Assembly: GCA_964019425.1 (NCBI GenBank)
Contig: OZ025803.1
Span: forward strand, 186,001 to 250,000
DNA: 64,000 nucleotides
Source: Flectonema sp. DT1601
Lineage: Eukaryota
Direction: 5' to 3'
In this document: positions 10,447-58,121 of the stretch, in pieces
How positions within the stretch are numbered: position 1 is the stretch's first letter
How the letters are laid out: each line of letters starts with the position of its first letter
Position numbers and translations under genes: made by a program
The notes under the pieces: model-generated
Seen by the model: only the letters and a program-made list of their open reading frames with translations
What the model was told of the DNA's origin: nothing
Database searches by the model: none

Positions 10447-13400
10447 TGAGTAAAAAAAGAATAAACCTTATTTTTAATACCAGCGTTGTCGAATGTCTCA
10501 AAACAGTGACATCACTGTGTGTTCGATCTGAGCTTCCTCTGCGGGGAAATAGTTGCATGGCGACACGAACCTTGTCTAAAGAAATGAATTGAACATAGTA
10601 CAGGAATACCACCAGAAAGATGCTTTAGTCTGTATGAGTAAAACAAGAATAAGTTATATTTTTTAATACCAGCGTTGTCGAATGTCTCAAAACAGTGACA
10701 TCACTGTGTGTTCGATCTGAGCTTCCTCTGCAGGGAAATAGTTGCATGGCGACACGAACCTTGTCTAAAGAAATGAATTGAACATAGTACAGGAATACCA
10801 CCAGAAAGATGCTTTAGTCTGTATGAGTAAAACAAGAATAAGTTATATTTTTTAATACCAGCGTTGTCGAATGTCTCAAAACAGTGACATCACTGTGTGT
10901 TCGATCTGAGCTTCCTCTGCGGGGAAATAGTTGCATGGCGACACGAACCTTGTCTAAAGAAATGAATTGAACATAGTACAGGAATACCACCAGAAAGATG
11001 CTTTAGTCTGTATGAGTAAAACAAGAATAAGTTATATTTTTTAATACCAGCGTTGTCGAATGTCTCAAAACAGTGACATCACTGTGTGTTCGATCTGAGC
11101 TTCCTCTGCAGGGAAATAGTTGCATGGCGACACGAACCTTGTCTAAAGAAATGAATTGAACATAGTACAGGAATACCACCAGAAAGATGCTTTAGTCTGT
11201 ATGAGTAAAACAAGAATAAGTTATATTTTTTAATACCAGCGTTGTCGAATGTCTCAAAACAGTGACATCACTGTGTGTTCGATCTGAGCTTCCTCTGCGG
11301 GGAAATAGTTGCATGGCGACACGAACCTTGTCTAAAGAAATGAATTGAACATAGTACAGGAATACCACCAGAAAGATGCTTTAGTCTGTATGAGTAAAAC
11401 AAGAATAAGTTATATTTTTTAATACCAGCGTTGTCGAATGTCTCAAAACAGTGACATCACTGTGTGTTCGATCTGAGCTTCCTCTGCGGGGAAATAGTTG
11501 CATGGCGACACGAACCTTGTCTAAAGAAATGAATTGAACATAGTACAGGAATACCACCAGAAAGATGCTTTAGTCTGTATGAGTAAAACAAGAATAAGTT
11601 ATATTTTTTAATACCAGCGTTGTCGAATGTCTCAAAACAGTGACATCACTGTGTGTTCGATCTGAGCTTCCTCTGCAGGGAAATAGTTGCATGGCGACAC
11701 GAACCTTGTCTAAAGAAATGAATTGAACATAGTACAGGAATACCACCAGAAAGATGCTTTAGTCTGTATGAGTAAAACAAGAATAAGTTATATTTTTTAA
11801 TACCAGCGTTGTCGAATGTCTCAAAACAGTGACATCACTGTGTGTTCGATCTGAGCTTCCTCTGCAGGGAAATAGTTGCATGGCGACACGAACCTTGTCT
11901 AAAGAAATGAATTGAACATAGTACAGGAATACCACCAGAAAGATGCTTTCGTCTGTATGAGTAAAACAAGAATAAGTTATATTTTTTAATACCAGCGTTG
12001 TCGAATGTCTCAAAACAGTGACATCACTGTGTGTTCGATCTGAGCTTCCTCTGCGGGGAAATAGTTGCATGGCGACACGAACCTTGTCTAAAGAAATGAA
12101 TTGAACATAGTACAGGAATACCACCAGAAAGATGCTTTAGTCTGTATGAGTAAAACAAGAATAAGTTATATTTTTTAATACCAGCGTTGTCGAATGTCTC
12201 AAAACAGTGACATCACTGTGTGTTCGATCTGAGCTTCCTCTGCAGGGAAATAGTTGCATGGCGACACGAACCTTGTCTAAAGAAATGAATTGAACATAGT
12301 ACAGGAATACCACCAGAAAGATGCTTTAGTCTGTATGAGTAAAACAAGAATAAGTTATATTTTTTAATACCAGCGTTGTCGAATGTCTCAAAACAGTGAC
12401 ATCACTGTGTGTTCGATCTGAGCTTCCTCTGCGGGGAAATAGTTGCATGGCGACACGAACCTTGTCTAAAGAAATGAATTGAACATAGTACAGGAATACC
12501 ACCAGAAAGATGCTTTAGTCTGTATGAGTAAAACAAGAATAAGTTATATTTTTTAATACCAGCGTTGTCGAATGTCTCAAAACAGTGACATCACTGTGTG
12601 TTCGATCTGAGCTTCCTCTGCGGGGAAATAGTTGCATGGCGACACGAACCTTGTCTAAAGAAATGAATTGAACATAGTACAGGAATACCACCAGAAAGAT
12701 GCTTTAGTCTGTATGAGTAAAACAAGAATAAGTTATATTTTTTAATACCAGCGTTGTCGAATGTCTCAAAACAGTGACATCACTGTGTGTTCGATCTGAG
12801 CTTCCTCTGCAGGGAAATAGTTGCATGGCGACACGAACCTTGTCTAAAGAAATGAATTGAACATAGTACAGGAATACCACCAGAAAGATGCTTTAGTCTG
12901 TATGAGTAAAACAAGAATAAGTTATATTTTTTAATACCAGCGTTGTCGAATGTCTCAAAACAGTGACATCACTGTGTGTTCGATCTGAGCTTCCTCTGCA
13001 GGGAAATAGTTGCATGGCGACACGAACCTTGTCTAAAGAAATGAATTGAACATAGTACAGGAATACCACCAGAAAGATGCTTTAGTCTGTATGAGTAAAA
13101 CAAGAATAAGTTATATTTTTTAATACCAGCGTTGTCAATGTCTCAAAACAGTGACATCACTGTGTGTTCGATCTGCTATGGGGATGAACTCCCTCTAATA
13201 ACGGATATTTGCAGCTGCAGGGGAACAGTTGCATGGCGACACGAACCTTGTCTAAAGAAATGAATTGAACATAGTACAGGAATACCACCAGAAAGATGCT
13301 TTAGTCTGTATGAGTAAAACAAGAATAAGTTATATTTTTTAATACCAGCGTTGTCGAATGTCTCAAAACAGTGACATCACTGTGTGTTCGATCTGAGCTT

Positions 13401-13499
13401 CCTCTGCAGAGAAATAGTTGCATGGCGACACGAACCTTGTCTAAAGAAATGAATTGAACATAGTACAGGAATACCACCAGAAAGATGCTTTAGTCTGTA
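10447..13499 (+). repeat. Tandem array of 16 units (15 x 189 bp, one 219-bp variant at ~13122) derived from the upstream region and 5' coding sequence of the adjacent RING-CH gene
   Basis: AATACCAGCGTTGTC recurs at 10476, 10665, 10854 ... 12933, 13122, 13341, then at 13530 ahead of the intact gene. Units are nearly identical and have no unique spacers. Confidence 0.97.
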
Positions 13500-13545
13500 T
13501 GAGTAAAACAAGAATAAGTTATATTTTTTAATACCAGCGTTGTCA

Positions 13546-19360: not shown

Positions 19361-19568
19361 TATATATTAGAAAGGGGGAAAAATAAAATAAAAAAATAAA
19401 ATAAAGGGACAGAGTTCATTTACTTTATTTATATATTATGGAACTTATTCGGTTTCCTCTTCTTGTGTTTTATAGATGACGTTTATCGTCTGTTTTTATT
19501 AGAAATTTAAAAAAAATGTTGTTGTTTAATTATTTCTTATTTAGTTAAATATAAAATGCGTTGGTGTG

Positions 19569-22500
19569 ATGACAACAGTGTCAGAAGTTTCAGTTGTCGC
19601 AGCCATCTCAACTATTTGTACTCTCAATTTCGATGACCTAATTGACAATAGTGACATACCTTTATCAATCCCACTGACAGCTCGTGCTAAATTATTAAGT
19701 TGCGGAGAATCTCATGTGTGTATTGGTCCAGTTAGGGAGAATTGCTTCGTTCTTCAAAGCGAATCCAAAGGAGAAATTTTAATAAATGAATCTCGAAAAG
19801 AGGTATTTGTTGGAGGAAAACCAAATTTAATATCATATCTACGTCAGAATTGCACCTACAAGATTGTGATTTTTATAAAGTCACACAATACTACTATTCA
19901 TATCAGAACTCCTCCTGTTATTGAAATCCATCGACTGTTACAAGTCGGTAGGCAGATCGCACAAATAACATTCACGAGGCCGATTGAAACTATTGCAACT
20001 CACACTCAGCTTCCAGCTGCAATAAACAGACAAGAAATTGCCAAGCGAGCAAGAGATCTTGTTCAACAAAAAAAAAACTCCGATTCCGAATTAGAGTTGC
20101 AAGCAACTACCATTCCAGACACAAATTCAGACATCGAAATGCCAGTCATTGGTCACGTTATAGGAAGCAGGATGGCAGCAGCTGCATGCTTCATGTATAA
20201 GAATCAAGCACAAGTAAACGCAAACGCTCATTCACCCAATCGAAGGGGTGATCTCATTATCGGAAAACCACCGCGAGACTTACATCCAACTGTTAAAGCT
20301 GCAAGCGATTGGAAAATAATGAATTCATGCAATGACCCTACTCGTATTCTGGTTGATAAACTGTGTGGGGTTCATTCGGTAGCCGTCCCGCAGATTGAAA
20401 ATTCAACTTCGGTACCGCAGTCGGATGTTGTGAAAGAAGTTCTTCCCGTTTTGAAAAAAAGACTTCCGAAGCTGGAGGCAGTCTGTCAGCAACCGTCAAA
20501 CTCTGTATCAGTAATTACTGGCTCTCAGTCGCAGTATGCTACGGATCTTTATGAGGTGTTTTTTGAGTCTATGTCAACCCGAAAAAAGATATTTGTTCAC
20601 TCGACTAATTGTTCTGTGTTATGCTCAGGACTCGAACCCGCGACCTACTACGCAACAAGAGTTCGAAGTAGGTGTGAAGTCACTCGAGTATTTAGTCCGT
20701 GGTCAGAACGAAGAGTATTCACAACATCTGCAGGAATTGTATTTTCTGTGAGTGAAGTACTTCATAACAGCGTCTTGTTGGAGTGGCGAGTAGGTGAGAT
20801 ACCAGAATCTACTGAAGGTAACAGCAAGGCAATCCTTGACCAAGAACTCACATCACATTCATCAGACAATAGCTGCAGCATCGCTATTGTTATCTCACCT
20901 GCTGATGAGGATCAACTCAAGTCGGAAAATACTTTTCGATTTACTACAATTGGTCTCTCAAATGATGAGCTGAAATCCAGCCATCGATTTACTGAATTAT
21001 TACAAAACACAAAATATAATGGGGTGTTGACATGTACTCCTGATGAACTATTTCATGGTGTTAGTGAGTACAAAGTTGAATTTTGCACTCCACTGAAGCC
21101 GAGGCTTCGAAAAAAGAAACAAAACACCGGTGGTGGTATTGAGAACTCAGCAGCCGCCCTCGCTGCGATTCAAAGCAAGGAGGGCGGACTTGGGTCTAGA
21201 AATGTGAGGTACGATCGAAGTTTGCCATCTCATTTTCGAAAAAAGCAGGAAAGACTACAACCTCTATTCAGTTCCCTTCCAGCTACCCCAACTGAAGTAC
21301 CTCCTGTTGAGACATTGGAAACTCCAACATTCGATGCGAGTGTCGTTCAGCCAGTTGTTTCATCTCCGTTAACGTTACCGACAAAACAGTCTCCTCATAT
21401 TTCCCCTACTAAGAAAACAGATTATACATCGTTGATACTTCAGCAGAGTGAAAGTGGAAGTCCATCTGCTCCAATTGACCCTTCAGAAGAAGACAATCAA
21501 TCACAAAGACATAGTCTAAGTAGTAGTGTTAGTGACACAGACAGTTCGACAGAGAGTGAGCCTATGAGGGTGGTACTGAATCCTGTCACGAAGGTGTTTT
21601 TGATTTCTGCTGAGGAACACGCTCTGACATTCGGATGGAGAGGAGACATCCCTGGGACTTCATCAACTAATTATAGAATTAGAATATTTACGATGGCTAC
21701 TGGTAAAACTATTCTACCTTGGGGATTCTGTCATGAGAATCCAAACAAAAGAGTAACAATGAAATCAATTGACGAATATCCATCAGTCCTACCAGGACAA
21801 GACGTAGACGACCCGAGAAGAACATTCGAATCGACTCTCAGTTCTTCAGTATCACAGTACAGAATACCTGAACTTCGACCTAATGCTAAATATGGAGTAA
21901 AAATGTGTTGTTACGATCCTATTGGCAATCACTGGCTTCCCTGGTCTCCCGCAGAAATTCTACAGACGCTAAAAGTTGCTGAGTTGTCAATTACGCAGGT
22001 GTGTTATCTTTTTTATTAATAAGCCTGTCTGTGACTCCTTTGTGTTGGATCTTCTTCATATAAAAGTAACTAAACAGATACGTTATAATAGTGTATCCCT
22101 GAAGCCATCGACTCAGGGTGAAGGAAGGACTGAACTTCGGATTGCGATTTATGACGGAGGGACTGCTCAGAATTTGAGATCTCATTTCGAACCAAATGCC
22201 GAACCATGCGTTGAAGATTTATCTGGTAATTGTCGCTACGTATTCGAAGCAAGACATCAACAAGAGAATGGATGGGGGTCTTGGAGTAATAAAGTTCAAC
22301 TCGCATATCGTTGTGTCCCTATCGAACTCAGTCCATACGGAGAAGATAATATTGAGATCTCCTGGTCACAGAAAGACTTAGCACAAGCACCTGTTGGAAT
22401 CACGACGAAGTATTTTATTGTTATAAAAGCTCTCTCGGCTAAGAAGGTTGAGGACATAGAATTAGATCATCTACCAACAAAGGGACGTCATCGTCTTACT

Positions 22501-25500
22501 GGTTTACAACAGGATCGATATAGGATTACATTCTTACAGGTTTTAGAAATTACTGACGAGGCCAGTTGGGCTTCGATTTCGAAGTACTTTTGGATTGAAA
22601 AGTATGCAGCGATTGCTCTGATAAAACAATTCGATGTTTTAATATCAAAAATTGGTGAAGATTCCATAACATTGTTTGCTGTTCAGTCTTCAGACAAACA
22701 TCGAATACCGAAACCATACACCTTAGAGTCCTCAACTCTTGAACAGGAAAGACAATTTCTTCAAGTTATCGAAAAAGTTCGTTCACAAGGTGAAGTCGAT
22801 TCCATGGCGAAGGACATTCTAAAATTCGAAATAGCAATCACACGACTAGACAACGGTCAGCAGCAGACGAGACAATTTCAACCAACTGCCCAGTTGGGTG
22901 GAATTGTTTGTGGGTTTGTACCTGACAAACCATACTCTCTCAGACTTCGACCACAATTACAAGCAGGCTCTTCACAATATTGGGGAGCCTGGTCATCCCT
23001 AACAAGGTTTACAACTCTTAGTAAGCTACACTTAGAAGCTGATGTGGTTGGTGAGGATTTTGTTCACATCAGATGGTCGAGAACCGTTCCTTTCAAGACT
23101 GCTAGTGAAGTCCTCGAACACCAGGCAATTCAAAAGCTACTCGACCTCGGAACAATCGGTCTCGACGAAGAACAAAAACGCCAGCATGAAATCGATATTG
23201 AAAGCGAACGCGACATTTGGAAGTTCAGAAAAGATGAGCGCGACAAACGTCGCGCACGAAGACGCAAACGACGACGAGAGAAGTACCCTCACGAGAAGGA
23301 TCCTCCGGTCGATAAAATTATAAAACCGACTTCAGCTGGCGATAAAGCAGATGCCTGGACAGCTGTAATGCAGGAATTGGCATCTGCTGAAAATCGAGAA
23401 CGGATTAGAGCCAATCACCGAAAACAAAAAGCTCAAAAAGTACTCATTCAACAAGAATTCACTGACTCTCAGTTAGAGGCGAGAGAACAGTACATTCTTA
23501 AGAAACAACAGCTTCAGAGAAGTAAGACGGGTCCTGAAGCACTTCTTGATGTGGTCTTGACTGCTGATGAAGAAGCTCGATTTTCAATTCCACCAAATGA
23601 AGTAATCTCATCTGACAGTACTGATGATGCTGATGATCATCCTTATCTTCAATTCCTTTATAAGACTAACACAGATTACGAAGTTTGGATTAGAGTTGAA
23701 GGTGAGAAAGATCCGATATTAAGAAGAGTTACTTGGGATGAGGACCAGTTCTTAGTCCAAGGCCTAACTTCAGGAATCCGTCACGCAATAAAAGTACGAC
23801 AAGAAGCTCTAGCAACAGGATGGTCATTATGGAGTAATCACATAATGATACAAACACTTGCTGACATTAGAGTTAAGATTCATGAAGTTGGTGAAGAGTA
23901 TGTTAACTTATCCTGTTCACGTGCACCAGTTGAAGTTGGTGATGAAGGAGCCTGTGAAGACACTCAAGTGATTACTTTACAAGATGATGTAGGATCTGTT
24001 ACTGGTTATCAAGTTAGAATCACATTCCGTTCAAGTAGAGGATACACCACAACTCAACAAGGATTTCAAGTTATTAGAGATATCTCTCTTGATAAATTCC
24101 ACGACATATTTCTGGTTGGAGGATTACAAACTGATTCGCTGTACAGCATTTGTGTTCGTGTTAAGGTAATGTTATTATCCTTTCTTATTCTTCAAGACTG
24201 ATATTAAAAATCATAAAAAAAAACAAAACAAAACAGGTTCGAAACGAGTACTGGGGACAATGGTCAGAACTGGTGTCATTCAGAACTGCCAGACCAATCG
24301 GACTAACGATAACATCAGTGAGTGAGTCGTCGATAGAAATATCATGGATGAGACCTCCCTTAGATACGGTAGAGCCTCGTCAACCAATACTAGCTCTTAA
24401 TAGTGAAGGAGAGTATGAGGCAGTCTATCAAACTCAAATAGCTGTCTGTCACGCGATACTCTACTGGACAATTACAATTCAGGGAATGCTTCCTAATTCT
24501 GACATGACGAGTGATGATAAATGGGTTACTGGAAATCAGATAATCGAAGAACCCTTCCAAAAGAGTTCCAAAGAGATAACAAGACTACAACCTGATTCTG
24601 TTTATAGATTAACGGTACGATCTATTGACAGTGTTGGTATTATAAGTCCATATTCACCTCCTTATTATGTCGTCACAAAACCAAGTGTTACGTCAAAAAT
24701 CATCATTCTGGGTGAGCATTTCGGAGTCTTAAAAAGTGAGCGAGCTGTCCGTTGCACAGAAGTAGCGAATCTAAAAATAGTCGCAGAAAGATTCCTGAAA
24801 CTCACAGAGCAGAGATTGGCAGCTCAGCAGCCGACTGAGGGAAAGAAATCAAAGAAGATTGGAAAGAAAGTCAGACACCAGAAACAAGAATCGTCATCAG
24901 CTTCGATACCCACCTTGACAGATTCAAAAAATAAGTCTCCAGAAGAACTTTTATACGAAGAGGGAGCATCCGTCCTAATTGAAGATGGTAAGGATTTAGG
25001 TTTTGAGGTTCGTGTGATTCCATCAGAAGTTTGGGAAGAATCACAAAAGAAACCAATTATTGGAGAGAAGTGTCGATTCACTATCATCCCACCTGAAGCG
25101 TCAAACAAAATAGCAATCACGAGAACTGACTCTACGGATGTTAGAATCCTTCAAAACCTTGAACCTGGTATGTACATAATTAATGTTCTGATAGAAATCA
25201 CTTCAAGTCAATCCATACAAACAAAAACCAGGTTCAACATATGCCTGTGTCAGTCGAGCACTGCACCAGTGGTCATCCAAACAAAAATCATCAAAGCAAG
25301 ACTCTTCTGAGCATGCTGAATGGGGAGCCTGGTGTGAACCTGCTTTTATTGAAACACTTCCAGCACTCGAAGTTATATTAGTCAATGTTTATGAATACAG
25401 CATTGAATTTACTATTTCTAAGGGAAATCATTGTCCTACATCTCTTTATAATTTTACTGGAACTACTAGTTTTCTGTATCAGTGTGCGATAAATGAGAAT

Positions 25501-28452
25501 ACATCACTTGAACCGTTGTGCTTGAAATCAGATGGCCCGACCTCCTTCAAGATCGTTGGACTTGAAAGAGACAAACAATACAATGTTACGATGAGAAATA
25601 AAATATACGACGTAAATGCTGGAATCAATGGAACAGTTTGTTTCGACAGCTGGCACTCAATATTTCATTTTAGAACACTTCCTAGAAGACCTTGTATGCC
25701 TGTTTTGTATGAGGCGAGACCGTTACCCACTGGAGGGTTAGTGGTTGGTTTTTTCTGGAGAACAGAACGTGATGCTGACTGTATAAGTGGGTTAGAGTTA
25801 AAGAGTACGGATGTGTCTATTTATAAACAAGGTGTATCTATGGCAATGCTCAGAGCTCGCTTTATAGAACTTTATGGAGTTGCTTACACTACGACAGAGA
25901 TATCTCCATCTGGTATATGGGATGTTGATGGCGATGAGGAAGACGACGACGACATTCGACCGTCTCGCGGATTCAAACAGCAGACTTCTCAAATAGATTT
26001 AGCATCTGGTAATTCTATAGCCGATACGTTAAGGATTTATTTAACATTTTCTGCTGATGCACTTCGAAAATTAATAGCCCAATCTCAAGGTAGACATCAT
26101 GACTTGCCAACTGGAATTCCCCCAACCGAATTAGCTTTACGATTATCACATATAATTATGTGTAATAAGTCTAATCAAAGTCACTACAGTGTTGTGAATT
26201 ATAAATTACTTCGAGGTCTTCATAGGAGTTATGTCAGACCTTTTCCTATTGTGACTCACAAGTTACAAAGAATACCTGACGTCAGTCCTTCAAGTTCACG
26301 GGCTGAGCAGTTGCTTCAAAACCTTCCTGGGAGTAGTTTTGTTCCTTTACTTAGAAAGATGAAAAGTGATTTGTGTTACTTGTCCGATACTCCTGAAGTA
26401 CAACCTGACGGTATTGATCCTAGTGGTTTAGATATGCCATCAGTTACTAATCTCTGTACTGTCATCATTTATGAAAACGTATCTGGCATGACGTTTGAAG
26501 GGTCCGTAGAATCACTTTTCGGCCCTCCACTGAAAGTCAGAACCCCTCCACCCGAAAAAACAACATCCACAACACAAACCCTAACCAAAGCAGAAGACTA
26601 CCTGAAAGGTTTATTATCTTGCGATAGTTCAGCTTACTTGGTTCAGGCGGCTTCGATTATCTCTTTAGACAACGGGGATAGCAACGCCTGGCATGTCGTG
26701 GGAGAAGTCGTAGGAGCAGGTTTCATACGAGTCATTCTAGAAAAAGGAAGGCTTTCCGACTACACTTTTCGACTCCGTGGCAGATCTGAATGTGCTGACA
26801 AACTTTTTAATTTCTACTCAAATAGATTGAAGGAAAGGAAATTATGGTCGTCATACTCTGTTGCTGTTTCTTGGAAGGAGAAACAACCTCCAAAAGTTTG
26901 TACCAACTTGCAATCGTCACATATAACTCACAGCAGTGCTATAATTAAATGGGTTCCTCCAGAGAATCGATCTTGTCATAATCAATTGACTTACTCAATC
27001 TTTATAATGAGAGTTGGTGATGATTCTAAATGGGTGGAGACTGTGAGAGTGTTAACACCAATCTGTCACTTAACCAACCTCGCAATAAGATCTACTTATA
27101 AAGTCGCAGTGCGAACATGTAGTACGTTTGGTTCTTCGTCTTTAAGTAAAGTTATTAGATTTTGTACTTCAATTCGAGCTGTTGAAAATAAATTATTAAA
27201 ACTCTCTCAGCTTGAATCACTTAAACAAGTGACGTGGTATTCTGGAGACTGGAAATGGCCTTATCCATCTCCCACAGAATCCGATTATGTCTCTCCTTTT
27301 AGCTCATCTTGTTTCCATCTTCCTGTAAACATGGAAGTAGGTTCTGCCACTAAGAGAAAGTTATACAGTCAACAGTTGAATTCAACACATAAAACACCTG
27401 CGTGTCTGGTTGTGCCTGATAATAAAGATGTTCTGCCGCCTGTTTGTATTCCTAAAGAAGGTCACTCGAATACGTCACTTGATGGAGGAATGATTTCAAT
27501 CGATAAATTAGAACATAAGAATACAATATCTCAATCAGGTTTAAAACAAAGTTTCTTAACAGAATCAAATCAAATTAAACTTCGCAAGCAGAGCTTCAGA
27601 AGAGCTCGTCGACGAAGACGTGGATCACTCTTAGAGACGGAAAGACGACGGAAATTCAAAATAGACGAACTCGAGGAACTTGAGGACCTCTCAGATGATA
27701 GAGACCTCCATTCATACAATCCACCAGAAGCTGATATTGTACTTATTAGTTGTTTAAAAATTCAAAGTCCCGTTCCGCCTTCACCGATTTCAGAGGCGTC
27801 TGGTTTACCAAAACAGATTGAGCCTGAGTTGAGTCCCAGAAAGTGCGTTGTCTTTAACATTGAAAACAAAGACAGTGAACTTCACATTCAAAAACAAGAA
27901 AGCAACGCCAGCAGCAGCGGTTTTGCTGACTCACAACTCTTTGTTGTTGAAAGCGAGTTGGAATCTTTAAACCTCGTACAAACTGAGGCCGATGATCTGT
28001 TTGCGGAGAGTGTGAAAAAGCTTCAAGTATCGAAATTGAGTTCAAAAAATGTCGTTGACACGGAATCGAACAGCGGGGGTTTACAAGGTGCACTAACTCT
28101 GAGTGCACTGTATCAAGTCACACCAGCAGCAACTGCAATACCTTCGACATGGGATGTTCAAGGAGATGATGTAAAAGATGTATCCCCTCAAGACTATCTA
28201 CCTCATGATGTTGTTAGTAACATTCCTGAGAAGGTTCGTAGAGTTCGTCCGCGTCCACCTCCAAAGTCTCTGATCACAACGTCGTTTCGAAGACGAGGTC
28301 GAGTGACATTCCATACTCGCAGAACTATTTTAAATACAAAAACGATTCCAAAGAATTGGTTCGTGTCTTCAGAAGTTGAAGATATCCTTGAAGGTCCCAT
28401 AAGCACACTTCCTCTTTATAATGCTTTTTCGGAGGAGATAAATCCTGCGTGA
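19569..28452 (+). CDS. Giant multi-fibronectin type III domain protein; exons 19569-21998, 22078-24165, 24237-25167, 25232-28452, ~2,889 aa
   Basis: Repeated FN3 signatures (GLEPATYYATRVR..SPWS, LRPNAKYGVKM..PWS, WGAWS, LQPDSVYRLTVRS, LTNLAIRSTYKVAVR). Three GT-AG introns join four long ORFs with matching phases. Confidence 0.88.
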
Positions 28453-28835: not shown

Positions 28836-30896
28836 ATGACTAAACCACAAGATCTTGCGATCGATCAGCGTCAGAATGGATATCCACCTTTTACATCTGT
28901 TTTTGGAGGAAAGAGTGAACATCGGTGTTGGTATTCTTTAGGAGACCGATCAGAAATGGAAGCAAAAGAAACCGGGAGCGACTTAGCAACCAAAGCAGAA
29001 AAGCGTATCCTGGGAGCGCTATGGCCAAGTGGTGCGTACACTAATAGAGAACAGATGCTGATTTCAAGGGAAGAAACGAGAGTTCAATTTACATGTGTCT
29101 GGTGTAAAGACACACTCTCAATTCATTTAACGAGACCAAGACCTGAAGTTGTTTATATTCCTCAAATACGAGTTGAAACTATTGATACTGAGAGGATTCT
29201 TTCAATGTACAGTAAACTATCTCAAATTCTTACTTTATTAGAAACTAGTCCCGATTCTAGTCCTCAGATTTCAAAGGAAACTCATCCAGAACTTTGCAAA
29301 AGTAGAGATAAATATTTTGTCGCTCCTGTCAACATATTACAAGCAGTCGGATTCGAACGTGGTGATGGAATATACAAAGTTCCTCAAAATGCTTCTCCGA
29401 TTTTTCCAGGAGATATGAGAAAAGCTTTAGAATCAGAGATAGAAGCCCTTACAACAACTGGTGGTGACTGTGATTTATCAACTGCTTGGCTTCCATGGGA
29501 AACCGGAGCGTTAACTTCTCGAATCTATCATTATGTTGACAGGGTTAAAGTTCACTTGGAAACATTAATTCAACAATTCGAAGTATCAGGTCCGAGTGTG
29601 GAATTATTATTTGAGGCTAAGAAGACTTGGTCATGGACGGCATCGTACTGGTACTTTGAGTACTATTCAATAATTAGAAGTGATTATCGTTTACGTGCGA
29701 ATCTACTGCTGAATTCTGCTTCTGGATTGGTTTGTCACGTTCATAAACAGTTGTCTCACTGCACTGATTTGTCTCTTTGCTTTGGATATCGAAGAAAAGA
29801 AGCATTTCCTCCATCTCTAATTAGAGTTCATGGATTCGTTACGTCATTTATTCAAGCATTATGGTGTTGTAGTGAGACTTACAGGAGTGCAGTGTTGGCC
29901 GTCCAAGTTTCCGATGCGGAGAAGGATTCTGAATTTCTGTGGTTTTGTAAACTTCAAAGACTGCTGGCCCACATGACTTTTGGAAAGTACAACAGCTACG
30001 ATGCAAAGTTCGTCTTAGAAATGTGCGAATGCCGGATCACATCATCAAAGAATACCAATCCATTGTTTTCACAAGGACTCACACCACACTCGTTGTTATC
30101 TCTGCTGACTACATCAGTTAGTCAGATTACTGGGCTTGCTGTTGTTTCGTGTATTGCTCTCCAGTTGGATCCCCTCCCTCAAAGTCTCAAGCTACTCTTC
30201 CCTTCCGCAATGGTTGAGGTGCTCTCTCTTGAGGATCTCATGGAACTTCGTGAGTCGGCTGTTTTTCACATCGCATTGAAGCCTTCTCAGTGTCCGCTGG
30301 CTGAGTTGGATAATTTTAGTCGAATTCAACTCCAGTTCGATTGCGAGCTGATGAGTGACATGAAGGGGATTTTCTCGGAGATCCAAAGTCGGAAAAGTGA
30401 TGCTACCGAATATCAGAAGTTGGTGGAGAGTTTGGAAGGCGGATGGGACAAACTGAAGTGTAAGGGTGATGAGGTGAAGGTGGTTTGCGCAGAGTTGCTG
30501 CGTTGCGGTGAAGAACGAGAGCGTGAGCTAAACATGCTCAAAGAGAAGTATGACAACATGTTAACAACAATTAGTAATTCAATACTCAATGGAGAAGATC
30601 CAACACATGGTTTATCATCAATCTCGTGGTTACTTCCTGATGGGTCTGCTTATTGTATGTCACGTGATCCCTGTCCTCCACATGTTTGGTATCACTCGGC
30701 TTCAGATAAAGAGAACATTCAATCTTATGATGTAATCTCAAAACTTTCATCATTCCCAACGGGAACGGAGATGCATTTATTTTATGAAGCAATTGTTTTT
30801 GATACCACTTCTGAAGGAAGTCAACAACAACATCATTGTTGGGCTTCTATCGTAAGTGAAAGTGAATCTGCCGACCAACAATGTGTGATCCCTTAA
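28836..30896 (+). CDS. Protein with a PUB-like segment and a degenerate USP (peptidase C19)-like domain
   Basis: Long ORF; ILQAVGFE (PUB-like); FVTSFIQALW..YRSAVL..LQRLLAHM resembles the USP region after the Cys box; coiled-coil insert. Domain calls are by eye. Confidence 0.55.
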   Translation: MTKPQDLAIDQRQNGYPPFTSVFGGKSEHRCWYSLGDRSEMEAKETGSDLATKAEKRILGALWPSGAYTNREQMLISREETRVQFTCVWCKDTLSIHLTRPRPEVVYIPQIRVETIDTERILSMYSKLSQILTLLETSPDSSPQISKETHPELCKSRDKYFVAPVNILQAVGFERGDGIYKVPQNASPIFPGDMRKALESEIEALTTTGGDCDLSTAWLPWETGALTSRIYHYVDRVKVHLETLIQQFEVSGPSVELLFEAKKTWSWTASYWYFEYYSIIRSDYRLRANLLLNSASGLVCHVHKQLSHCTDLSLCFGYRRKEAFPPSLIRVHGFVTSFIQALWCCSETYRSAVLAVQVSDAEKDSEFLWFCKLQRLLAHMTFGKYNSYDAKFVLEMCECRITSSKNTNPLFSQGLTPHSLLSLLTTSVSQITGLAVVSCIALQLDPLPQSLKLLFPSAMVEVLSLEDLMELRESAVFHIALKPSQCPLAELDNFSRIQLQFDCELMSDMKGIFSEIQSRKSDATEYQKLVESLEGGWDKLKCKGDEVKVVCAELLRCGEERERELNMLKEKYDNMLTTISNSILNGEDPTHGLSSISWLLPDGSAYCMSRDPCPPHVWYHSASDKENIQSYDVISKLSSFPTGTEMHLFYEAIVFDTTSEGSQQQHHCWASIVSESESADQQCVIP

Positions 30897-31299
30897 TACG
30901 GTGAGTAAGAATTACTGTAATTCTCTCTTACTTATGTTTATTTTATTTTGTCTCATAGGCTACATTGCTGAGTGTACCGTCAACCTTTTATCGGTATGTG
31001 TTTAAATATTATTTGTTTTATTCCCTGTTTGCCTTTCTACTAAAAGCGTCATATCAGAAGTTGTTAAGAAAAGTGGATTCTTAACTCGCTTTAAGCGTGA
31101 ATCGCGATATACAGCTGCAGGAGCTTTCCTTGTAGAATTGTTTCTCTATATGTTACATTTAAATTCTCAAACAAACAACAGACACGACGGCAGCAATGAG
31201 CAACAATTTGCATGAGGAGTTGTTTTATACCAGTGTGTGGTTGTGATTTTCTTATTTATTTATTTTCCATTTCTTAAATTCGACAGCACACCACTCAAT

Positions 31300-34200
31300 A
31301 TGATTATTCATTGGTTTTTAACAACAGTGATATGTATCGTGTGTTTGTTAACTGTAGTGTTTGTTGTTTCTATTCCGTTGGGAGTGGCGATGCCTGATGA
31401 TGGAAGTGGCTGTGTTATGACTCGAATGTGGCCAAATTGGATCACCGAAAACGAATCATCGCCATACCGTTTAATGAGATACTCTGATGGTGAAGATCGT
31501 TCAAGTACTGATCCTTATATGAGAATACCGATAGTATTTGTTCCAGGTAATGGTGGATCGTATAAACAAGGACGAAGTATTGGTCACGTCATGTCTGAAG
31601 ACCCTAACGGAATTTACACTTTATACGCTGTGGACTACATTGGTGAGCTATCAGCATTGTCTGGAGAAATATTTAGTAAACAACAAAAATATTTACACGA
31701 AGAAGTAGTTAAGACTATCAGGCGACTACATAGACTGAAACCCACCACTAAGATTGGATGCATTGCTCACTCGATGGGAGGAATTGTTGCTTCCACCGAT
31801 GTCACTAATTGGAGTTTTGTCATCGCACTGGCAACGCCATTTGCTCATCCTCCGATACTGGACGACTTATTGTTTGAAGCTGCGTATGATTCATTAAATA
31901 AGAAACCAGACATACCAATAGTCAGCGTGTCATCTGGTATTCGTGATTTCATGGTTCCAGCTTCTCAGTCTAAACACGATCTGTTTGTATCCACATACGT
32001 GAGAGTCAGTGATATCGATGCGAGGGTTGAGTGTGATCACCTATCGATACTTTGGTGTAATCAAGTTGTTATGTTTATAGTAAAGACACTTCTTCCATCG
32101 GAGGGGAAATACCGAAATGAAATTCCTGAAAAGAAACTATTGAAAACCAGTCGAGAGAAAACAAAATGCGCGGAGTTCGTTGAGTCGGACTCCTCATCCG
32201 AAAAGTCTGTTGTTTTGTTATCAACTTCTACTGTTAGTAGTAAAGAATCAAAACAGATTGAATCTGTTAGGTATTTCAAGCAAATATCTTCACGAGTAGC
32301 TGTCTCTGCGTTTGATGCATCGTGTGCGAACATATCAACGTCAGTCTGTTTTCCAGAAGGTTCTTCTTGTTGTGATGATATCACGATACCTTCTTACGAT
32401 GTATTATTCTCTCCTACACTTAGTGTGAATATCAATTTCCCACCAGGACGTAGTTGTGGTCTCTTATCTCAACATAGCTTGCCATGGTTCCTGCGGGGGC
32501 TCGTGTTCAGAGCTTCCCATTCAAGTCGAAGTTGTGAAAAAGGATCAAATTCATATTTCATTAAAAATGGAAATAAAATATCAAAACGAGGAGTTATTCT
32601 TGCACCGGATAATAATTATTTCTGGATAACTGAAATAATTAAAGACACGTCATGTGACTCAACTATTACTTTATCACCTCAATGGGCTGCTTCAAGTTGG
32701 GTTCAATTTACATCCAACGGAGGTGTCGCATCTCTTGTTTTGACTGTCTCGGTGCTTTCTCTACAATTAGGAAACATATTTCATTTAATTTCCTTACTGT
32801 CGCTTTGTATCTTACTGTCCCCTGTGATGGTTCTTGTTGGGATGTCGGTCAAAAAGATTTTTCGGCTTCTAACTTGTATCGGAATGGCTTTACTGCCAGC
32901 TTCTAGTGCATCAAAACAACGTGTGTGGTTCGTGCCAGGTATGTATTTATTTATTTAAAACTATTTACAACATGTTACTGAGGAGATCATCAAGTAATGT
33001 CGCGCATGTCAATTCAGAAAACTGGGGAAAATAATAACTTGATTGTCATTTAGGGACGATCATTTTTTTTTTTCACAATAAAAAAAAAAATAAAAAACAA
33101 AAATGAACCACCTTCTTCCTTAGAAGGAATAAAAAGCCTTCGTTATAAATAGTGAACTGGTTGTTTTAATATAAAGAAATGTTAGTCTCAGTGGGGGGTA
33201 CACAACTAACAAATGGAATTCACACGAGTTACTTCAATTGGTGAGCTGACTGCGTCTGTGCAGTCAGCTGGAGCTGTCGCTGTCGCTGTGGATGTCGGAG
33301 GGACAAACACACGAGTCGCATTGAAAGACGTCAACAGCAACATCACAGCAGCAGTTTTCAAAGAAAAAATCAACTCAAAAGTTGATCTTCTTAACATGCT
33401 TTCTTCTATCGGTGTTGCCCTGAACGGCAAGAAGGTTGTTGGTGCTTCTTTAGCTGGACCAGGACCCCGCAATGCAATGGGAACACAATTGGGTCCATTT
33501 TCTAACTATCGGGGAGACTCAGTAAATGATAAGATTATTCACAAGAAGGAATTACCTTCCACTCTGTTTCCTCAAAACAGCACCACATTACTTAACGACT
33601 TAGAGGCTGCAGCGTATGGTATCGCATCAGTGAGTAAATCTGATCAACTGGCGTCTAATTTCACAATGATGTGGGGTCCAAATGACGCAAAGAAAATGTA
33701 CCTCGAGAGGGGACCGTACTTAATCATAGCTGCCGGCACTGGTTGTGGAACAGGTCTCGTTTACTTAGGTTCTAATGGGAATATTGAAGTCATGCCGTTG
33801 GAATTTGGACATGTTAGTGTTGTCACAGAATCTGCTGAGGAGGAATGGCTCTCATATATGAAACCAATTCTTAAAAGAGGTGATAAGCCTCCTGAGTATG
33901 ACGATGTGGTTACTGGTAGAGGTTTATTGTGGGCCTACAATTTCTACAAACAGAAATCAACATCTGTTTCTGTTCCAGAATTAACTGATCCTGCAGAGGT
34001 TGCGATGAGGTCACATAAAGGATGTCCAGTTGCTGGTCAGGCGATGAAGACTCACTACAAGCTTCTTATGAATTTAGCATCGAATCTAACGATGGGATTC
34101 GTCTTGGGTGGTGTTGTTGTTGCTGGTGATAATGCTATGCACAATGAGCCATTCTTATCGTCCCCAGAAAATATAAAATTCCTCAAACAATCATACCTTT

Positions 34201-35345
34201 CACACACAACTGAGCGCATGGGTTTCCAGTCTCGCGCTAATGTTATCCGCCAGTCTGGTTCTCTTTCTCTCAATCTGTTGGGGGCTTTCTTTAAAGCTGT
34301 TCCTGTTAACCCTTCAAGTAAGTTGTGATATTTATATTCTACTAATGATTATTATTAGGGGTCAAAGTCCAGCAACCAACCAGTTGTTGTTTTGTGCCCC
34401 ACCCGTGAATTGACAACCTACCGAAAAGCTGCGTCGGGGTCAGGTGACTGTTTCGGGTCCGGTTGTTTTTTACAACCCCTCGAGAACATGTTCTAACTTC
34501 AGTAGAGGCTTACTTCTAACAGAAAATTTGTGCGTTCGCAAAAAAAAAAAAAAAAGAAAAGTGGGAAAAAAAAAAAAAAAAAAAAATTGTGCGTATGTCG
34601 GTTATCTGAGCTGCAGTTTCTGACCACTGTGTTGTTTTCCTCGAAAGTCGTTTTTTAAAAAAAAAAAGAGAATTGTTTACGTTCTATTCTCCATTAATTC
34701 CCCGAAAAAGAGGTACCTACGAGTATTATTGTTGTGGCGAATATGTTACCTTCAACATCTAAAATATTACCATTCTTATGTAAACTGGGTATGGATGGTA
34801 TCTGTTTTTCCTTCTTAACAGGTGGATTTGGGTTCCCCCTTCACAACATTTTTTTTTTGGGAGACAAGCAAGATGTTCAAAAAATTCCTTTTTTTAGTTT
34901 TTTCTTTTTTAAAAAAATTATATCAATTTCTGACAAAATATAAAACACAGCGATACTTGCTATAGCGACTCCTTTCATGGGACCTTTCGCATCTGCTGTT
35001 GGATGGTTACTGGCAATCTTGTTTAGATGCGATCCTAACTTAGTAGAAATACTCTTACTAAATGTTGTGGTCACAAGCGTTCCATTCGCTGCAGGGACAC
35101 ACATCCGATCTGTACGGGGTTGCTTTGGTGATACTGTTATTCTTTTGGCTCTTTCACGTAGTTTATATTCGAAGTCATTACCGTTGAGTTCGATACCTGA
35201 TTGGATATATTACAGTTCTGCGGTAGCCATGATGACTATGCTGTTCAGAGGATCACCAACAACGTCGATAACAATTCTGGGACTCACCACGTTGATAACG
35301 ACTGAAATTAATATCCGAAGTCGAGTTAAAACTCACAGCAACTAA
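31300..35345 (+). CDS. PGAP1: GPI inositol-deacylase, PGAP1/Bst1-like; exons 31300-32938 and 34951-35345, ~677 aa, with a 2,012-nt intron
   Basis: C.MT.MWP, FVPGNGGSYKQGRS, AHSMGG lipase motif, RDFMVP, DHLSILWCNQ. Donor G|GTATGT and acceptor AAAACACAG|CG are both phase 1. Exon 2 is hydrophobic and ends KTHSN. Confidence 0.82.
33213..34328 (+). CDS. Glucokinase (bacterial/trypanosomatid type) with C-terminal PTS1 (SKL); intronless, inside the PGAP1 intron
   Basis: AVDVGGTNTR, LLNDLEAAAYG, AAGTGCG, PLEFGH, VTGRGL; ends SSKL. Confidence 0.9.
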   Translation: MEFTRVTSIGELTASVQSAGAVAVAVDVGGTNTRVALKDVNSNITAAVFKEKINSKVDLLNMLSSIGVALNGKKVVGASLAGPGPRNAMGTQLGPFSNYRGDSVNDKIIHKKELPSTLFPQNSTTLLNDLEAAAYGIASVSKSDQLASNFTMMWGPNDAKKMYLERGPYLIIAAGTGCGTGLVYLGSNGNIEVMPLEFGHVSVVTESAEEEWLSYMKPILKRGDKPPEYDDVVTGRGLLWAYNFYKQKSTSVSVPELTDPAEVAMRSHKGCPVAGQAMKTHYKLLMNLASNLTMGFVLGGVVVAGDNAMHNEPFLSSPENIKFLKQSYLSHTTERMGFQSRANVIRQSGSLSLNLLGAFFKAVPVNPSSKL

Positions 35346-35478
35346 CCCCGTTGTTCCCTCTCTGTGTGAGAGTTATAAATTATTATGGGGCGAGCTTTCT
35401 TGACGAGTGGTGTAAAACATATTAACTCAAAGTAGACTTTATTTACAATTCTTAAAAACAGTACGCAATATGAAATGA

Positions 35479-36381
35479 ATGGGTAGACTGAGATCACCTC
35501 TCTTAATACAAATAGATGGGAGAGATGAGAAGGGGCACAGGCGAAAATCACGTCGAACATCACTCGCAGGTGTGCCAAGGGAGTTGTGGACATACATAAC
35601 TGATTACTGTGAGGTAGAAGATCTACTTCGGATGGTTAGAGTGAATAGACAGATGGCGAGAACTGGTATGCAGATACTGTGTGATCAATATCCTCATGTA
35701 GCACCGGCATTACCGTGTAGTTTAAAAATAATGAGGGGAGGTGTTCGATGGCAAGTCCGTATATGTCTTACAGCCATAGTAATAAAAAGAGAAGACCTCA
35801 CACATAATATAACAGGTGGGATCTCATGGGTAGGAAAAATACTTGATTGGGTTGAAGGTATGGCCATGGCTGGTCATGTATCACCTGCTCGAGGTGCTTG
35901 GGCACCAATTCTATCAACAGCATCTCTTGATCTCAGCTCTCTTATGAGTGATGTTATACCAAACTTACCCCCTTGTTCACAAATAGAGCAGTCTACTTCT
36001 TCTCGTCATCGTTCAACTATGTCTCTTCTTGGTCCATTCTCACCCAGTAAACACAATAATAATCAAATTGAACCTTGTGAACGTCAGATCGTTCTCGACC
36101 CGAGAAAAACATCATTCATGAAGTATGTGTTCCTTGTGAGTTTGTTTATTGTTGTAAGAGAAGAAAGGAAATTTGAAAGAAAATAACAAGAAAAAAAACA
36201 AAACAGGATGAGAAACATGCTCGATCTTTGCGATGAAATAATATCTGAGGACATCTCAATGAATGATCTCGTGATTTCGTATAGTTCTAAAGCTTACGAT
36301 AATAACACGTTGACTGACTCATCACTTCTTAATACTGATATCAGTTTATCTGCAACGGAGACAACATCAGTGAAGGCATGA
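35479..36381 (+). CDS. F-box protein; exons 35479-36122 and 36207-36381
   Basis: LAGVPRELWTYITDYCEVEDLLRMVRVNRQM F-box pattern; phase-2 GTATGT..AAAACAG intron. Confidence 0.72.
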
Positions 36382-36864
36382 ACTTACTAATATTGTTTTT
36401 TTTTTTTTTTTTTTCCCCCCCCCCTTTTTTTCTGTCCACTTCACGTTGATCTTACCATGTTCGATACTTCTTTGCAAAAAAAAAAAAAAAAAATTCATCA
36501 TCACTGCGAGAATTAATAAAAAAGAAACCTGATCTGATCCCATGCTGTAGTCACTATTACTAATTATATTTCTGTTTTATATCTTCCAACGGGAGTTGTC
36601 CTTACGGACGTTACTCTTTTTTTTTTTTTTGGGGGCAATATGATTCCCTTTCCCTTTCGACGGCCTCCACCAAAGAAACTTGGCAAAGACCTGCAGTATC
36701 CTTCTCGGATCGTATTAAGCCCCCTTTTGACAGCATGCATGGGGTTTGTAATGTCAACAGTTGGGTCGTTTTTTTTACATGGCAAACTCAGGCCAAACCC
36801 TGTTTTTTAGTTTTAGCCATTTTTGAAGTTGCTTTATATTTAATTACAGTATCAGGTTATCTCC

Positions 36865-56327: not shown

Positions 56328-57758
56328 ATGTTTCGAAGTGTGCGATTCTGCCTCCAAGCCGAGGCAATGCACAAACCTGAAGTGATGGTGAAAGACAGAA
56401 TGAAAGTTGGATGGGTGGGTCTTGGTAATATGGGTATGGGTATGGCGTGGAAGATAATAAAAGAACCCACAAACACTGTTCACTTGTGGACTAGATCAGA
56501 ACGTAAACTAGAAGGATACAGTAAATACATGGAAGAACAGATGAACAGATGGGTATTTAGAAGACCATTGCTAATTGATATCCCTCGATTTTCTGATATC
56601 ATATTCGTCTCTTTAGCAAATATCAGAGCAACAAGAGAAGTGTTGTTAGAAAGAGATGATGCTATACTTTATAACTGTAAACCTGGTACAGTAATAGTTA
56701 ATCATAGTACTGTTGATCCTGAGACATGCGCGGAGTTGGCGCAGATAGCAGCCGCACGTGATCTCTTGTACCTTGACGCTCCTATTTCTGGTTCTCCCGA
56801 GTTGTCCCAGAGCGGGAATCTAACAGTAATGGTCGGAGGTGATGAGATCGGCTTTCGCAAAGCCTCAAAACTAATGTCCAGATACGCAAGCAATATTCAG
56901 TACATGGGACCTGCTGGTGCTGGAACTCGAACAAAAGTCTTAGTTGAAGCTGTTGGAGCTGCTCAGAATGTTTTATCAGCGGAGTGTGCACTTCTCGCGA
57001 AGTCTCTTGGGCTGAATGATTTCGATACACTTTCTAATGTTATTGACGGGACTTTATCAGGTTCAAATATGTTAAAAAGGAATCTCCCATTCATGTCACA
57101 TCAATTTCAAGCCACTGACAAAGTGTTTACCGGAACTAAAATATCCAGTCAGGTTAAGAATCTACGAATTATGGAGAGAGCAGTTCCATCTGAACTACGT
57201 CCTATGCTACCATTGATATCGAGATCGCAGGACATAACTGTGGCGACGGGTGATGCTGGTGGACACGATGCGGATATTTCTTCTGTTTTACATTTCTTAA
57301 ATCCAACCAATCCGAATACAGAAATCAATTGGAAGACTTCAATACACTCTGAGGAAGATAATCAGGATACCAAATCAGATAACTCAGCGAAGTTCAACTG
57401 GAGTGACGTTACTGAGTTCGATTCCCCACAAAACTCTGGTCCGACTTCATCTGTAGAAGTTCCTACAATCTCAAGAGATAAGCTTGAGTCGTTATATTCT
57501 AAGGCTCGTCCTTCTGCTGCTGATTCAACAGGTCAGGGTCGGGCTCAAGTAGTTCGCTCAGCCATCAATTCAATGAGTAACCCACTAGGAAAACAACATC
57601 ATTCAGTACAAGCAACAATGGATAAATTCTCTAACGTTGGTAAGTTATTTGATAGTAGTATGGGAAAGGCAACTTTCCACGGAGTTCCATTCCACCAGCG
57701 TGCTCAGAGCCTCATCGATCCAACAAAGGGAAAGACGTTAGATGTAAAGGCAGCGTAG
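56328..57758 (+). CDS. Beta-hydroxyacid dehydrogenase (3-hydroxyisobutyrate dehydrogenase/6PGD family), possible mitochondrial presequence, C-terminal extension
   Basis: VGWVGLGNMGMGMA, NHSTVDP, YLDAPISG, GNLTVMVGG, GAGTRTK. Confidence 0.88.
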   Translation: MFRSVRFCLQAEAMHKPEVMVKDRMKVGWVGLGNMGMGMAWKIIKEPTNTVHLWTRSERKLEGYSKYMEEQMNRWVFRRPLLIDIPRFSDIIFVSLANIRATREVLLERDDAILYNCKPGTVIVNHSTVDPETCAELAQIAAARDLLYLDAPISGSPELSQSGNLTVMVGGDEIGFRKASKLMSRYASNIQYMGPAGAGTRTKVLVEAVGAAQNVLSAECALLAKSLGLNDFDTLSNVIDGTLSGSNMLKRNLPFMSHQFQATDKVFTGTKISSQVKNLRIMERAVPSELRPMLPLISRSQDITVATGDAGGHDADISSVLHFLNPTNPNTEINWKTSIHSEEDNQDTKSDNSAKFNWSDVTEFDSPQNSGPTSSVEVPTISRDKLESLYSKARPSAADSTGQGRAQVVRSAINSMSNPLGKQHHSVQATMDKFSNVGKLFDSSMGKATFHGVPFHQRAQSLIDPTKGKTLDVKAA

Positions 57759-58121
57759 GACAGCAACGATGCCAAACTTGAAGACTTTCTAATAATAAAA
57801 TGTACCAGTACTCACTGCCTATTCACTCGATACTGAGATCGTTTTTTAATCAAAGAGTATGACTGGTACTTGGGTGTCTCAGCTGTGATACTGATGACCT
57901 AAATCTTGTTATCAATTATTCGATATATTTAGTTCGAACCTTAAACAGACTTTTTAAAATAATTTAAAATTCTATTTTTATGAAAAAAAAAAACAACAGC
58001 ACATGGTAGAGATGATCCTTTTACGTTATGGTACCTCAGCGTGAACTCTCGTGAAATATCTTTAATTAGGGGGGTTTTTTATTTAATTTTTATATCAGTC
58101 CCTTCCCCCCGCACACACATA

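Follow-up and report, generated by a model that had tools for sequence, protein, structure and literature searches.

Within a 64,000-nucleotide (nt) stretch of the diplonemid Flectonema sp. DT1601 (contig OZ025803.1 of assembly GCA_964019425.1, positions 186,001 to 250,000; hereafter the window, with coordinates counted from its first letter), an intact glucokinase gene very probably lies inside a predicted intron of a gene for a PGAP1/Bst1-like protein, on the same strand. We put the probability of this parallel nested layout, irrespective of the mechanism by which its RNAs are processed, at roughly 0.88. The window has 39% GC and 0 N, and the parts of the locus are as follows.

31300..32938, plus strand: PGAP1/Bst1 exon 1, 546 codons plus 1 nt, with the N-terminal membrane helix, the lipase domain and the first C-terminal membrane helices
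32939..34950, plus strand: predicted phase-1 GT-AG intron of 2,012 nt holding the glucokinase gene, from donor and acceptor scores and an orthologue profile
32956..32958, plus strand: stop codon of the unspliced PGAP1 frame, giving a truncated PGAP1 of 552 amino acids (aa)
33213..34328, plus strand: intronless glucokinase of 371 aa with C-terminal SKL, from Pfam family PF02685, PDB matches and orthologues
34951..35345, plus strand: predicted PGAP1 exon 2 (an orphan exon), the last 130 residues with about five predicted helices, ending in KTHSN

Joined across 32938/34951, the PGAP1 frame stays in phase 1 and is open for 677 aa, with KTHSN at its C-terminus. The donor reads CCAG/GTATGT at 32939 and the acceptor, AAAACACAG, ends at 34950; the glucokinase coding frame is complete, lies wholly between them, and is full length by comparison with 10 diplonemid orthologues. 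A TAA at 33207–33209 is in frame with the glucokinase ATG at 33213, and the glucokinase stop codon is at 34326–34328. An earlier note on this DNA had drawn the same outline, and its donor, read-through stop, TAA, ATG, acceptor, intron size, phase and KTHSN end were all correctly placed.

Splice sites were scored with matrices trained on eight other introns of the window, whose leave-one-out scores range from 2.8 to 9.8 for donors and from 7.2 to 19.1 for acceptors. The PGAP1 donor scores 11.8 and ranks first among the 3,818 GT sites in the window, and the acceptor scores 11.9 (rank 45 of 4,001 AGs). It outscores every other CAG in the interval, which holds 104 AGs; two AAGs in poly(A) runs score higher. 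The G/GTATG donor and A-rich CAG acceptor agree with the diplonemid consensus; passages of PMC12621601 give a G/GTATG donor and an A-containing CAG acceptor for introns of Lacrimia, Diplonema japonicum and Rhynchopus. The other introns had been described as 64–192 nt long, which is true of 10 of the 11 other candidates, the remaining one (57640–57999) being 360 nt. A repeat search at the intron ends found A/T runs only, with no target-site duplication and no long end-pairing, and an Rfam scan of 30800–36500 gave a single match at chance level.

By Pfam and PDB matches and by motifs, both genes encode ordinary members of their families. Exon 1 matches PF07819 at 107 bits (cut-off 24.3; E 1.6e-30) and the PDB entries 8k9q, 8k9t and 8k9r at E 8e-10 to 7e-9, and the catalytic motifs H157-S158-M159-G160 and D246-H247 are invariant in eight of eight sequences; the predicted activity is that of the PGAP1/Bst1 glycosylphosphatidylinositol (GPI) inositol-deacylases (PDB 8K9Q/R/T), relative to which the window protein is short (677 aa predicted, 646 in Lacrimia) with a reduced middle region. 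The glucokinase matches PF02685 at 79.5 bits (cut-off 22.1; E 3e-22) and 12 PDB entries, the eight best at E 1e-29 or better. Its closest relative is that of Flectonema neradi, with 76% identity over 100% of the length, followed by Lacrimia, D. japonicum and other diplonemids at 43–51%. All 11 diplonemid glucokinases have 359–395 aa and terminal tripeptides resembling a type 1 peroxisomal targeting signal (PTS1), and the SKL end of the window protein is a predicted peroxisomal or glycosomal PTS1, in keeping with passages of PMC9512073 that describe a PTS1 glucokinase as general in kinetoplastids and diplonemids. A metagenome scan with the 11 proteins kept 80 of 332 loci, with top matches of 35% identity at full length or 41% over partial length; these loci did not enter the comparison of synteny.

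Exon 2 is coding-like: its codon-model score of 0.216 falls inside the range of 180 coding windows (mean 0.28 ± 0.10, minimum 0.064) and above all 238 non-coding windows (−0.30 ± 0.14, maximum 0.047). A PGAP1 profile search covering 1.84 billion representative sequences returned diplonemid proteins from Diplonema papillatum (P0095, 779 aa), Lacrimia (P0096, 646 aa) and Namystynia (P0098, 853 aa), and these group with the window PGAP1 and a further diplonemid frame (P0007) in one clade of a tree of 191 catalytic domains (support 0.93). Aligned with the joined protein, the residues following the junction column number 131 in the window, 128 in Lacrimia, 128 in D. papillatum and 277 in Namystynia. 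A profile built solely from the last 140 or 200 residues of the Lacrimia and D. papillatum proteins puts 34944–35342 at the top of 701 six-frame segments (E 0.085 and 0.1 within the window), a score reached by 1 and 3 of 1000 shuffles. By plain summed local score exon 2 is eighth of 278 segments, behind mostly longer frames. Among joins of PGAP1 to each of 395 acceptors as far as position 40000, that at 34950 has the highest score (3.4 bits, reached by 9 of 1000 shuffled tails), and the joined alignment is colinear over most of exon 2. In direct comparison with the D. papillatum tail exon 2 has a global Z of 3.5 (0 of 2000 shuffles) and a local Z of 2.1 (95 of 2000). Aligning the joined protein with PGAP1 orthologues, as the earlier note had proposed, places exon 2 in line with their C-termini, and we read the homology as real, faint and position-specific, the pairwise tests being weak.

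A model of Lacrimia PGAP1 folded on 97 sequences (mean predicted local distance difference test score, pLDDT, 67; helix count ours) has ten long helices, one N-terminal and nine C-terminal, with six from residue 506 on. Its residues 1–639 align with the fungal PGAP1 8k9t at Z 29.5 (root-mean-square deviation 5.7, 463 residues aligned; next fold Z 19.2). The junction maps to about Lacrimia residue 514, in the fifth helix, and exon 1 alone would be without helices 6–10, about five of the ten predicted membrane helices; passages of PMC10761859 describe ten transmembrane helices (TMHs) in fungal PGAP1, with TMH7 central and TMH6 and TMH7 lining a lipid cavity. A single-sequence model of exon 2 alone has five helices at pLDDT 47 and, at this low confidence, no Foldseek match at E 0.001. 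The COPI retrieval signal KxHxx has K at position −5 and H at −3, and the KTHSN end has this pattern. It had been used as an argument for the join, which conservation does not uphold: the pattern occurs in 0 of 170 PGAP1 homologues of at least 640 aa, and K at −3 occurs in 53 of them, Lacrimia and Namystynia included.

The two genes also appear linked in two relatives. In Lacrimia the glucokinase is TRINITY_DN3065_c1_g2_i1 (EukProt P023172/3) and the full-length 646-aa PGAP1 is TRINITY_DN3065_c1_g2_i3 (P023174), and since two unrelated proteins are here isoforms of one Trinity gene, they must have sequence in common or be bridged by reads. The suffix.p1 marks the longest frame of a transcript, and because the glucokinase is the.p1 frame of i1, that transcript likely lacks the whole of exon 1. 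In both Lacrimia and D. papillatum the whole PGAP1 is in one chain. In a second diplonemid the PGAP1 frame P0007 (516 aa) diverges after G-M-Y and ends 28 residues on, and this break occupies the same column as G-M-Y in the unspliced frame of the window, as expected from a G/GTATGT donor. For P0007 and for the glucokinase P0055 the contig is in each case 1,549,909 nt long, and given the equal sizes it is probably the same one. Of the four informative relatives, to which the earlier note had looked for synteny, Lacrimia and the P0007 diplonemid show a link, and D. papillatum and Namystynia show none. The nested arrangement is likely shared with Lacrimia and one more diplonemid and, with two of four relatives linked, is likely a feature of one diplonemid branch. 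A search with a five-sequence PGAP1 alignment returned no further diplonemid; it missed three of its own five rows and so carries no weight for an absence from Flectonema or D. japonicum. Together, the colinearity of exon 2 with orthologue C-termini, the loss of about half the helices from exon 1 alone and the linkage in relatives bear out the nested reading first proposed. As a separate observation, the glucokinase-linked PGAP1s (P0096, P0007 and the window) have a shorter middle region than those of D. papillatum and Namystynia, and residues 313–426 have low model confidence.

As to how the two messenger RNAs (mRNAs) arise, we give rather better than even odds to one polycistronic precursor in which cis-splicing of the 2,012-nt intron would compete with addition of a spliced leader (SL) inside it. 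A shared precursor would fit both the window, in which all family-named frames save one DDE transposase fragment are on the plus strand, and D. papillatum, for which passages of PMC10161547 report genes in one-strand clusters, an SL on essentially all mRNAs and a median 3′ untranslated region (UTR) of about 800 nt. Spacing at the locus is tight, the upstream gene model ending 84 nt short of the PGAP1 ATG and exon 2 being followed after 133 nt by another ATG. The sites at which the leader could be added are as follows.

31285..31286, plus strand: candidate SL acceptor AG of PGAP1, predicted, after a U-rich tract and 13 nt before the ATG
33179..33181, plus strand: out-of-frame upstream ATG, opening a 21-codon frame that overlaps the glucokinase start
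33184..33191, plus strand: candidate SL acceptors of glucokinase, AG ending at 33185 or 33191, predicted
35460..35481, plus strand: next gene, candidate leader acceptor (AG ending at 35461) and ATG at 35479, predicted

Two mutually exclusive routes would then be open to one precursor. In the first, the donor at 32939 would skip glucokinase and pair with the A-rich acceptor at 34950, giving the 677-aa enzyme of the endoplasmic reticulum (ER), and glucokinase would be lost with the lariat. In the second, SL addition at about 33191 would give a glucokinase mRNA and an exon-1-only PGAP1 RNA, from the product of which about five of ten membrane helices would be missing. The out-of-frame ATG at 33179 would favour leader addition downstream of it. 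Competition of this kind, which the earlier note had suggested, has a trypanosomatid precedent: passages of PMC11613528 describe leader addition at or inside cis-introns, with SL-exon 2 and intra-intronic trans-splicing isoforms. The 20 bases before ten cis acceptors of the window are 67% A; for 18 of 19 start codons, the 20 bases ahead of the closest upstream YAG are 45% T. The difference in A minus T is significant (p 3e-5), although the contrast is partly circular, as the cis sites were picked with an A-rich filter. The leader candidates of glucokinase have A minus T of 0.0–0.15, below all ten cis sites (0.3–0.8), and so fall with the sites ahead of start codons. With the same circularity, cis acceptors across the window are rich in A and C and nearly devoid of U tracts, and the AGs before start codons are U-rich.

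In trypanosomes polyadenylation is coupled to the next leader site. At this locus the glucokinase frame is followed by 622 nt of A/T-rich intron remainder, and two endings of its mRNA may be considered. Slightly favoured, and still tentative, is an end past exon 2, with exon 2 serving as part of a 3′ UTR of about 1.1 kb and the PGAP1 poly(A) site shared, an outcome which the earlier note had missed. It would be the simplest account of the shared Trinity gene in Lacrimia, which unprocessed precursors would explain as well, and if it is correct the pair would be overlapping, rather than strictly nested, at the transcript level. An end inside the intron, with an SL-exon 2 RNA as by-product, is the more doubtful of the two.

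Several observations weigh against the nested reading or against the processing proposed for it. Exon 2 matches no Pfam family above cut-off, its local and global scores with the Lacrimia and Namystynia tails are not significant, BLASTP with Lacrimia PGAP1 gives E 1.6, and free alignment of the separate pieces misplaced it; the Lacrimia helices after the junction have pLDDT of about 47–63. The shared Trinity gene indicates common sequence or bridging reads and not nesting as such, the single contig of P0007 and P0055 rests on equal sizes, and the P0007 donor rests on the tripeptide G-M-Y. PGAP1 and glucokinase are on different contigs in D. papillatum (604,025 and 252,052 nt) and in separate Trinity clusters in Namystynia (DN30002 and DN47300). 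Rival splice sites are present at 33348, 34318 and 34789. The acceptor at 34950 is at the low edge of the cis range (0.3) in the partly circular acceptor contrast, and the PGAP1 junction, leader sites and poly(A) sites are predicted or postulated ones.

An unlikely alternative, and the one that best survives, keeps the nested layout and places a separate promoter for glucokinase within the first 270 nt of the intron, so that the two genes would be transcribed separately. The 274 nt before the glucokinase ATG are AT-rich (GC 0.29), own promoters are usual for parallel nested genes of animals, such genes are described for ctenophore, human and fly in passages of PMC8527503, and in passages of PMC10161547 the co-transcription of diplonemid genes is itself a deduction from their order and from SL use. 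However, the window is one long plus-strand cluster with genes 84–133 nt apart here, and read-through PGAP1 precursors would encounter the leader acceptor all the same.

The intron contains two more phase-1 donors.

34318..34323, plus strand: GTAAGT in the Ser-Lys-Leu codons, perhaps usable as a weak donor of phase 1, in frame with exon 2 (score 5.3)
34789..34794, plus strand: second strong donor-like site, 162 nt before the acceptor (score 11.4)

The donor at 34789, strong, in matching phase and at a normal intron length, is one support for a quite unlikely reading in which nothing is nested: PGAP1 would end in exon 1, as the 552-aa protein or with a short nearby tail, and 34951–35345 would be a separate small membrane-protein gene, starting at its own ATG (34977) or at ATG 34743 with a 162-nt intron from 34789, or else an independently produced second half of a split PGAP1. 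The weak pairwise homology of exon 2 and the SL-exon 2 RNAs known in trypanosomatids also suit it. On the other hand, the AGs at 32960–33212 would add tails of just 5–23 residues, none with a cis score above 7.2, and we rejected them; the frame before 34789, tried as an extra exon at 34711–34788, is not coding-like, and with it the profile score falls from 3.4 to 1.0, so that this exon too was rejected. Moreover, PGAP1 of Lacrimia and D. papillatum is in one chain, and the best donor in the window would be left idle.

Very unlikely, in our judgement, is the earlier note's second route, in which excision of the intron comes first and the lariat, after receiving a leader and a poly(A) tail, becomes the glucokinase mRNA, so that one molecule yields both mRNAs. 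It would entail no trade-off, and within the intron some 250 nt upstream and 620 nt downstream of the glucokinase frame could accommodate it. We met no precedent in the literature searched, the route alone would give no overlap between mature Lacrimia mRNAs, and it would limit the supply of a glycolytic enzyme to that of PGAP1. This route finds no support here.

The chance is slim that fusions are the main products, whether by splicing of exon 1 to 33348 within the glucokinase frame or by a join from 34318 in glucokinase to exon 2, the latter replacing PTS1 with a membrane anchor. Either join would keep the frame. The TAA at 33207 prevents fusion to the glucokinase start, as the earlier note said, and to that start only; in-frame AGs lie further inside, such as 33348 with a cis score of 9.6. 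Use of 33348 would cost the first 46 glucokinase residues, the conserved D-x-G-G-T-N stretch included. Splicing from 34318 would give an open 499-aa frame with membrane helices in place of PTS1, and GTAAGT in Ser-Lys-Leu codons is expected by chance only about 4% of the time (0.21 × 0.40 × 0.46); yet the donor scores only 5.3, all 11 diplonemid glucokinases have 359–395 aa and PTS1-like ends, and exon 2 resembles PGAP1 tails. The joins at 33348, 34318 and 34789 are without support from orthologues. As a third product, a membrane-anchored glucokinase without peroxisomal signal could be added by the donor in the SKL codons, itself an outside chance. There is scarcely any likelihood that an assembly artefact placed glucokinase inside PGAP1, for the locus has 0 N and no flanking repeats beyond A/T runs, and the genes are independently linked in Lacrimia RNA and on the second diplonemid contig.

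Nested genes as such are not new, and the earlier note overrated the novelty of the layout, parallel nested genes being common in animals. Passages of PMC8527503 report 2,357 nested genes in the ctenophore Hormiphora californensis, many parallel to the host, note that its mRNAs carry a spliced leader, and call nested genes largely absent from annotated protist genomes. Nested genes are also reported in passages on the glass sponge Aphrocallistes (PMC10282587) and the dinoflagellate Amphidinium carterae, there in 25% of genes (PMC12584245); those of PMC1657053 and PMC3156134 concern opposite-strand cases only. In Hormiphora, Aphrocallistes and Amphidinium, as here, a whole protein-coding frame sits in the intron of another gene, and the passages on them describe neither genome-wide polycistronic transcription nor a resolved route of processing; unlike those cases, the present pair is in a tight one-strand euglenozoan cluster with introns mostly of 64–192 nt.

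Within the same phylum, passages of PMC11613528 show the PAP1, DBP2B and RBP20 introns of trypanosomatids receiving the leader at the 3′ site or inside, instead of being cis-spliced. There the alternative product is a host fragment (SL-exon 2), whereas here it would be a complete, unrelated enzyme, and those passages mention no nested gene, using the word only for nested PCR. ORF-carrying introns of D. papillatum, in passages of PMC10161547, likewise show that GT-AG introns of diplonemids may be of great length and contain reading frames, although those frames are transposable elements and the one here is a conserved single housekeeping enzyme with PTS1. We found no report of nested genes in Euglenozoa, in a search that lay outside subscription papers and the main supplement of PMC10161547 on introns and polycistronic units; the word is not used of genes in the passages of PMC12621601 and the preprint 10.64898/2026.07.29.740908 and is absent from seven supplements of PMC10161547.

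At the cholinergic locus VAChT lies in the first intron of ChAT, and nematodes have alternative operons. There too two proteins come from one transcription unit by alternative processing. Those pairs share a 5′ exon and a pathway, whereas here the enzymes are unrelated, a common 5′ exon is not required, and whatever the two mRNAs had in common would lie at the 3′ end.

Other features of the window are given here for completeness. Directly after the glucokinase stop, 34359–34493 (plus strand) is a 45-codon open stretch that is not coding-like; its peptide, which we take to resemble motif Ia of DEAD-box helicases, has no Pfam or PDB match and no further helicase motif nearby, and it is possibly a pseudogene scrap. 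The upstream gene (28836–31215, plus strand) matches no Pfam family and is modelled as 694 aa with introns at 30852–30958 and 30994–31181. Four successive plus-strand frames at 19545–28452 match fibronectin type III domains, with at least two short-intron joins, and are possibly one protein of about 3,000 aa. A plus-strand tandem array at about 10630–13500, with a period of about 189 nt and 16 copies of one marker motif, reaches the start of a RINGv gene and recalls the repeat-bounded genes of D. papillatum. The 360-nt candidate intron at 57640–57999 (plus strand, phase 1) would join a 3-hydroxyisobutyrate-dehydrogenase-like frame to a 334-aa frame without a name (766 aa joined). The sole minus-strand family match is the DDE_1 transposase fragment at 62685–62996, below the cut-off at E 0.003.

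What is new at this locus is a known gene layout with ordinary enzymes in a setting that would force a directly testable processing choice. At loci of this kind gene callers cut the host short: P0001 and P0007, the two PGAP1 records that derive from genomes, are both exon-1-only frames. On the unlikely side, we also consider a conserved RNA switch in this diplonemid branch that would make either an ER GPI-remodelling enzyme or a glycosomal glucokinase according to conditions, through a two-letter acceptor code in which A-rich sites are for cis-splicing and U-rich sites for the SL; same-strand nests of this sort might then be common and have escaped annotation. In diplonemids many cis-introns coexist with leader trans-splicing of co-transcribed genes, and how a single spliceosome discriminates cis from trans acceptors is an open question. 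At this locus one and the same RNA would have to be processed one way or the other, both products are easy to measure, and since the arrangement appears to be kept in at least two, and perhaps three, genera, the question should be directly testable in cultured species.

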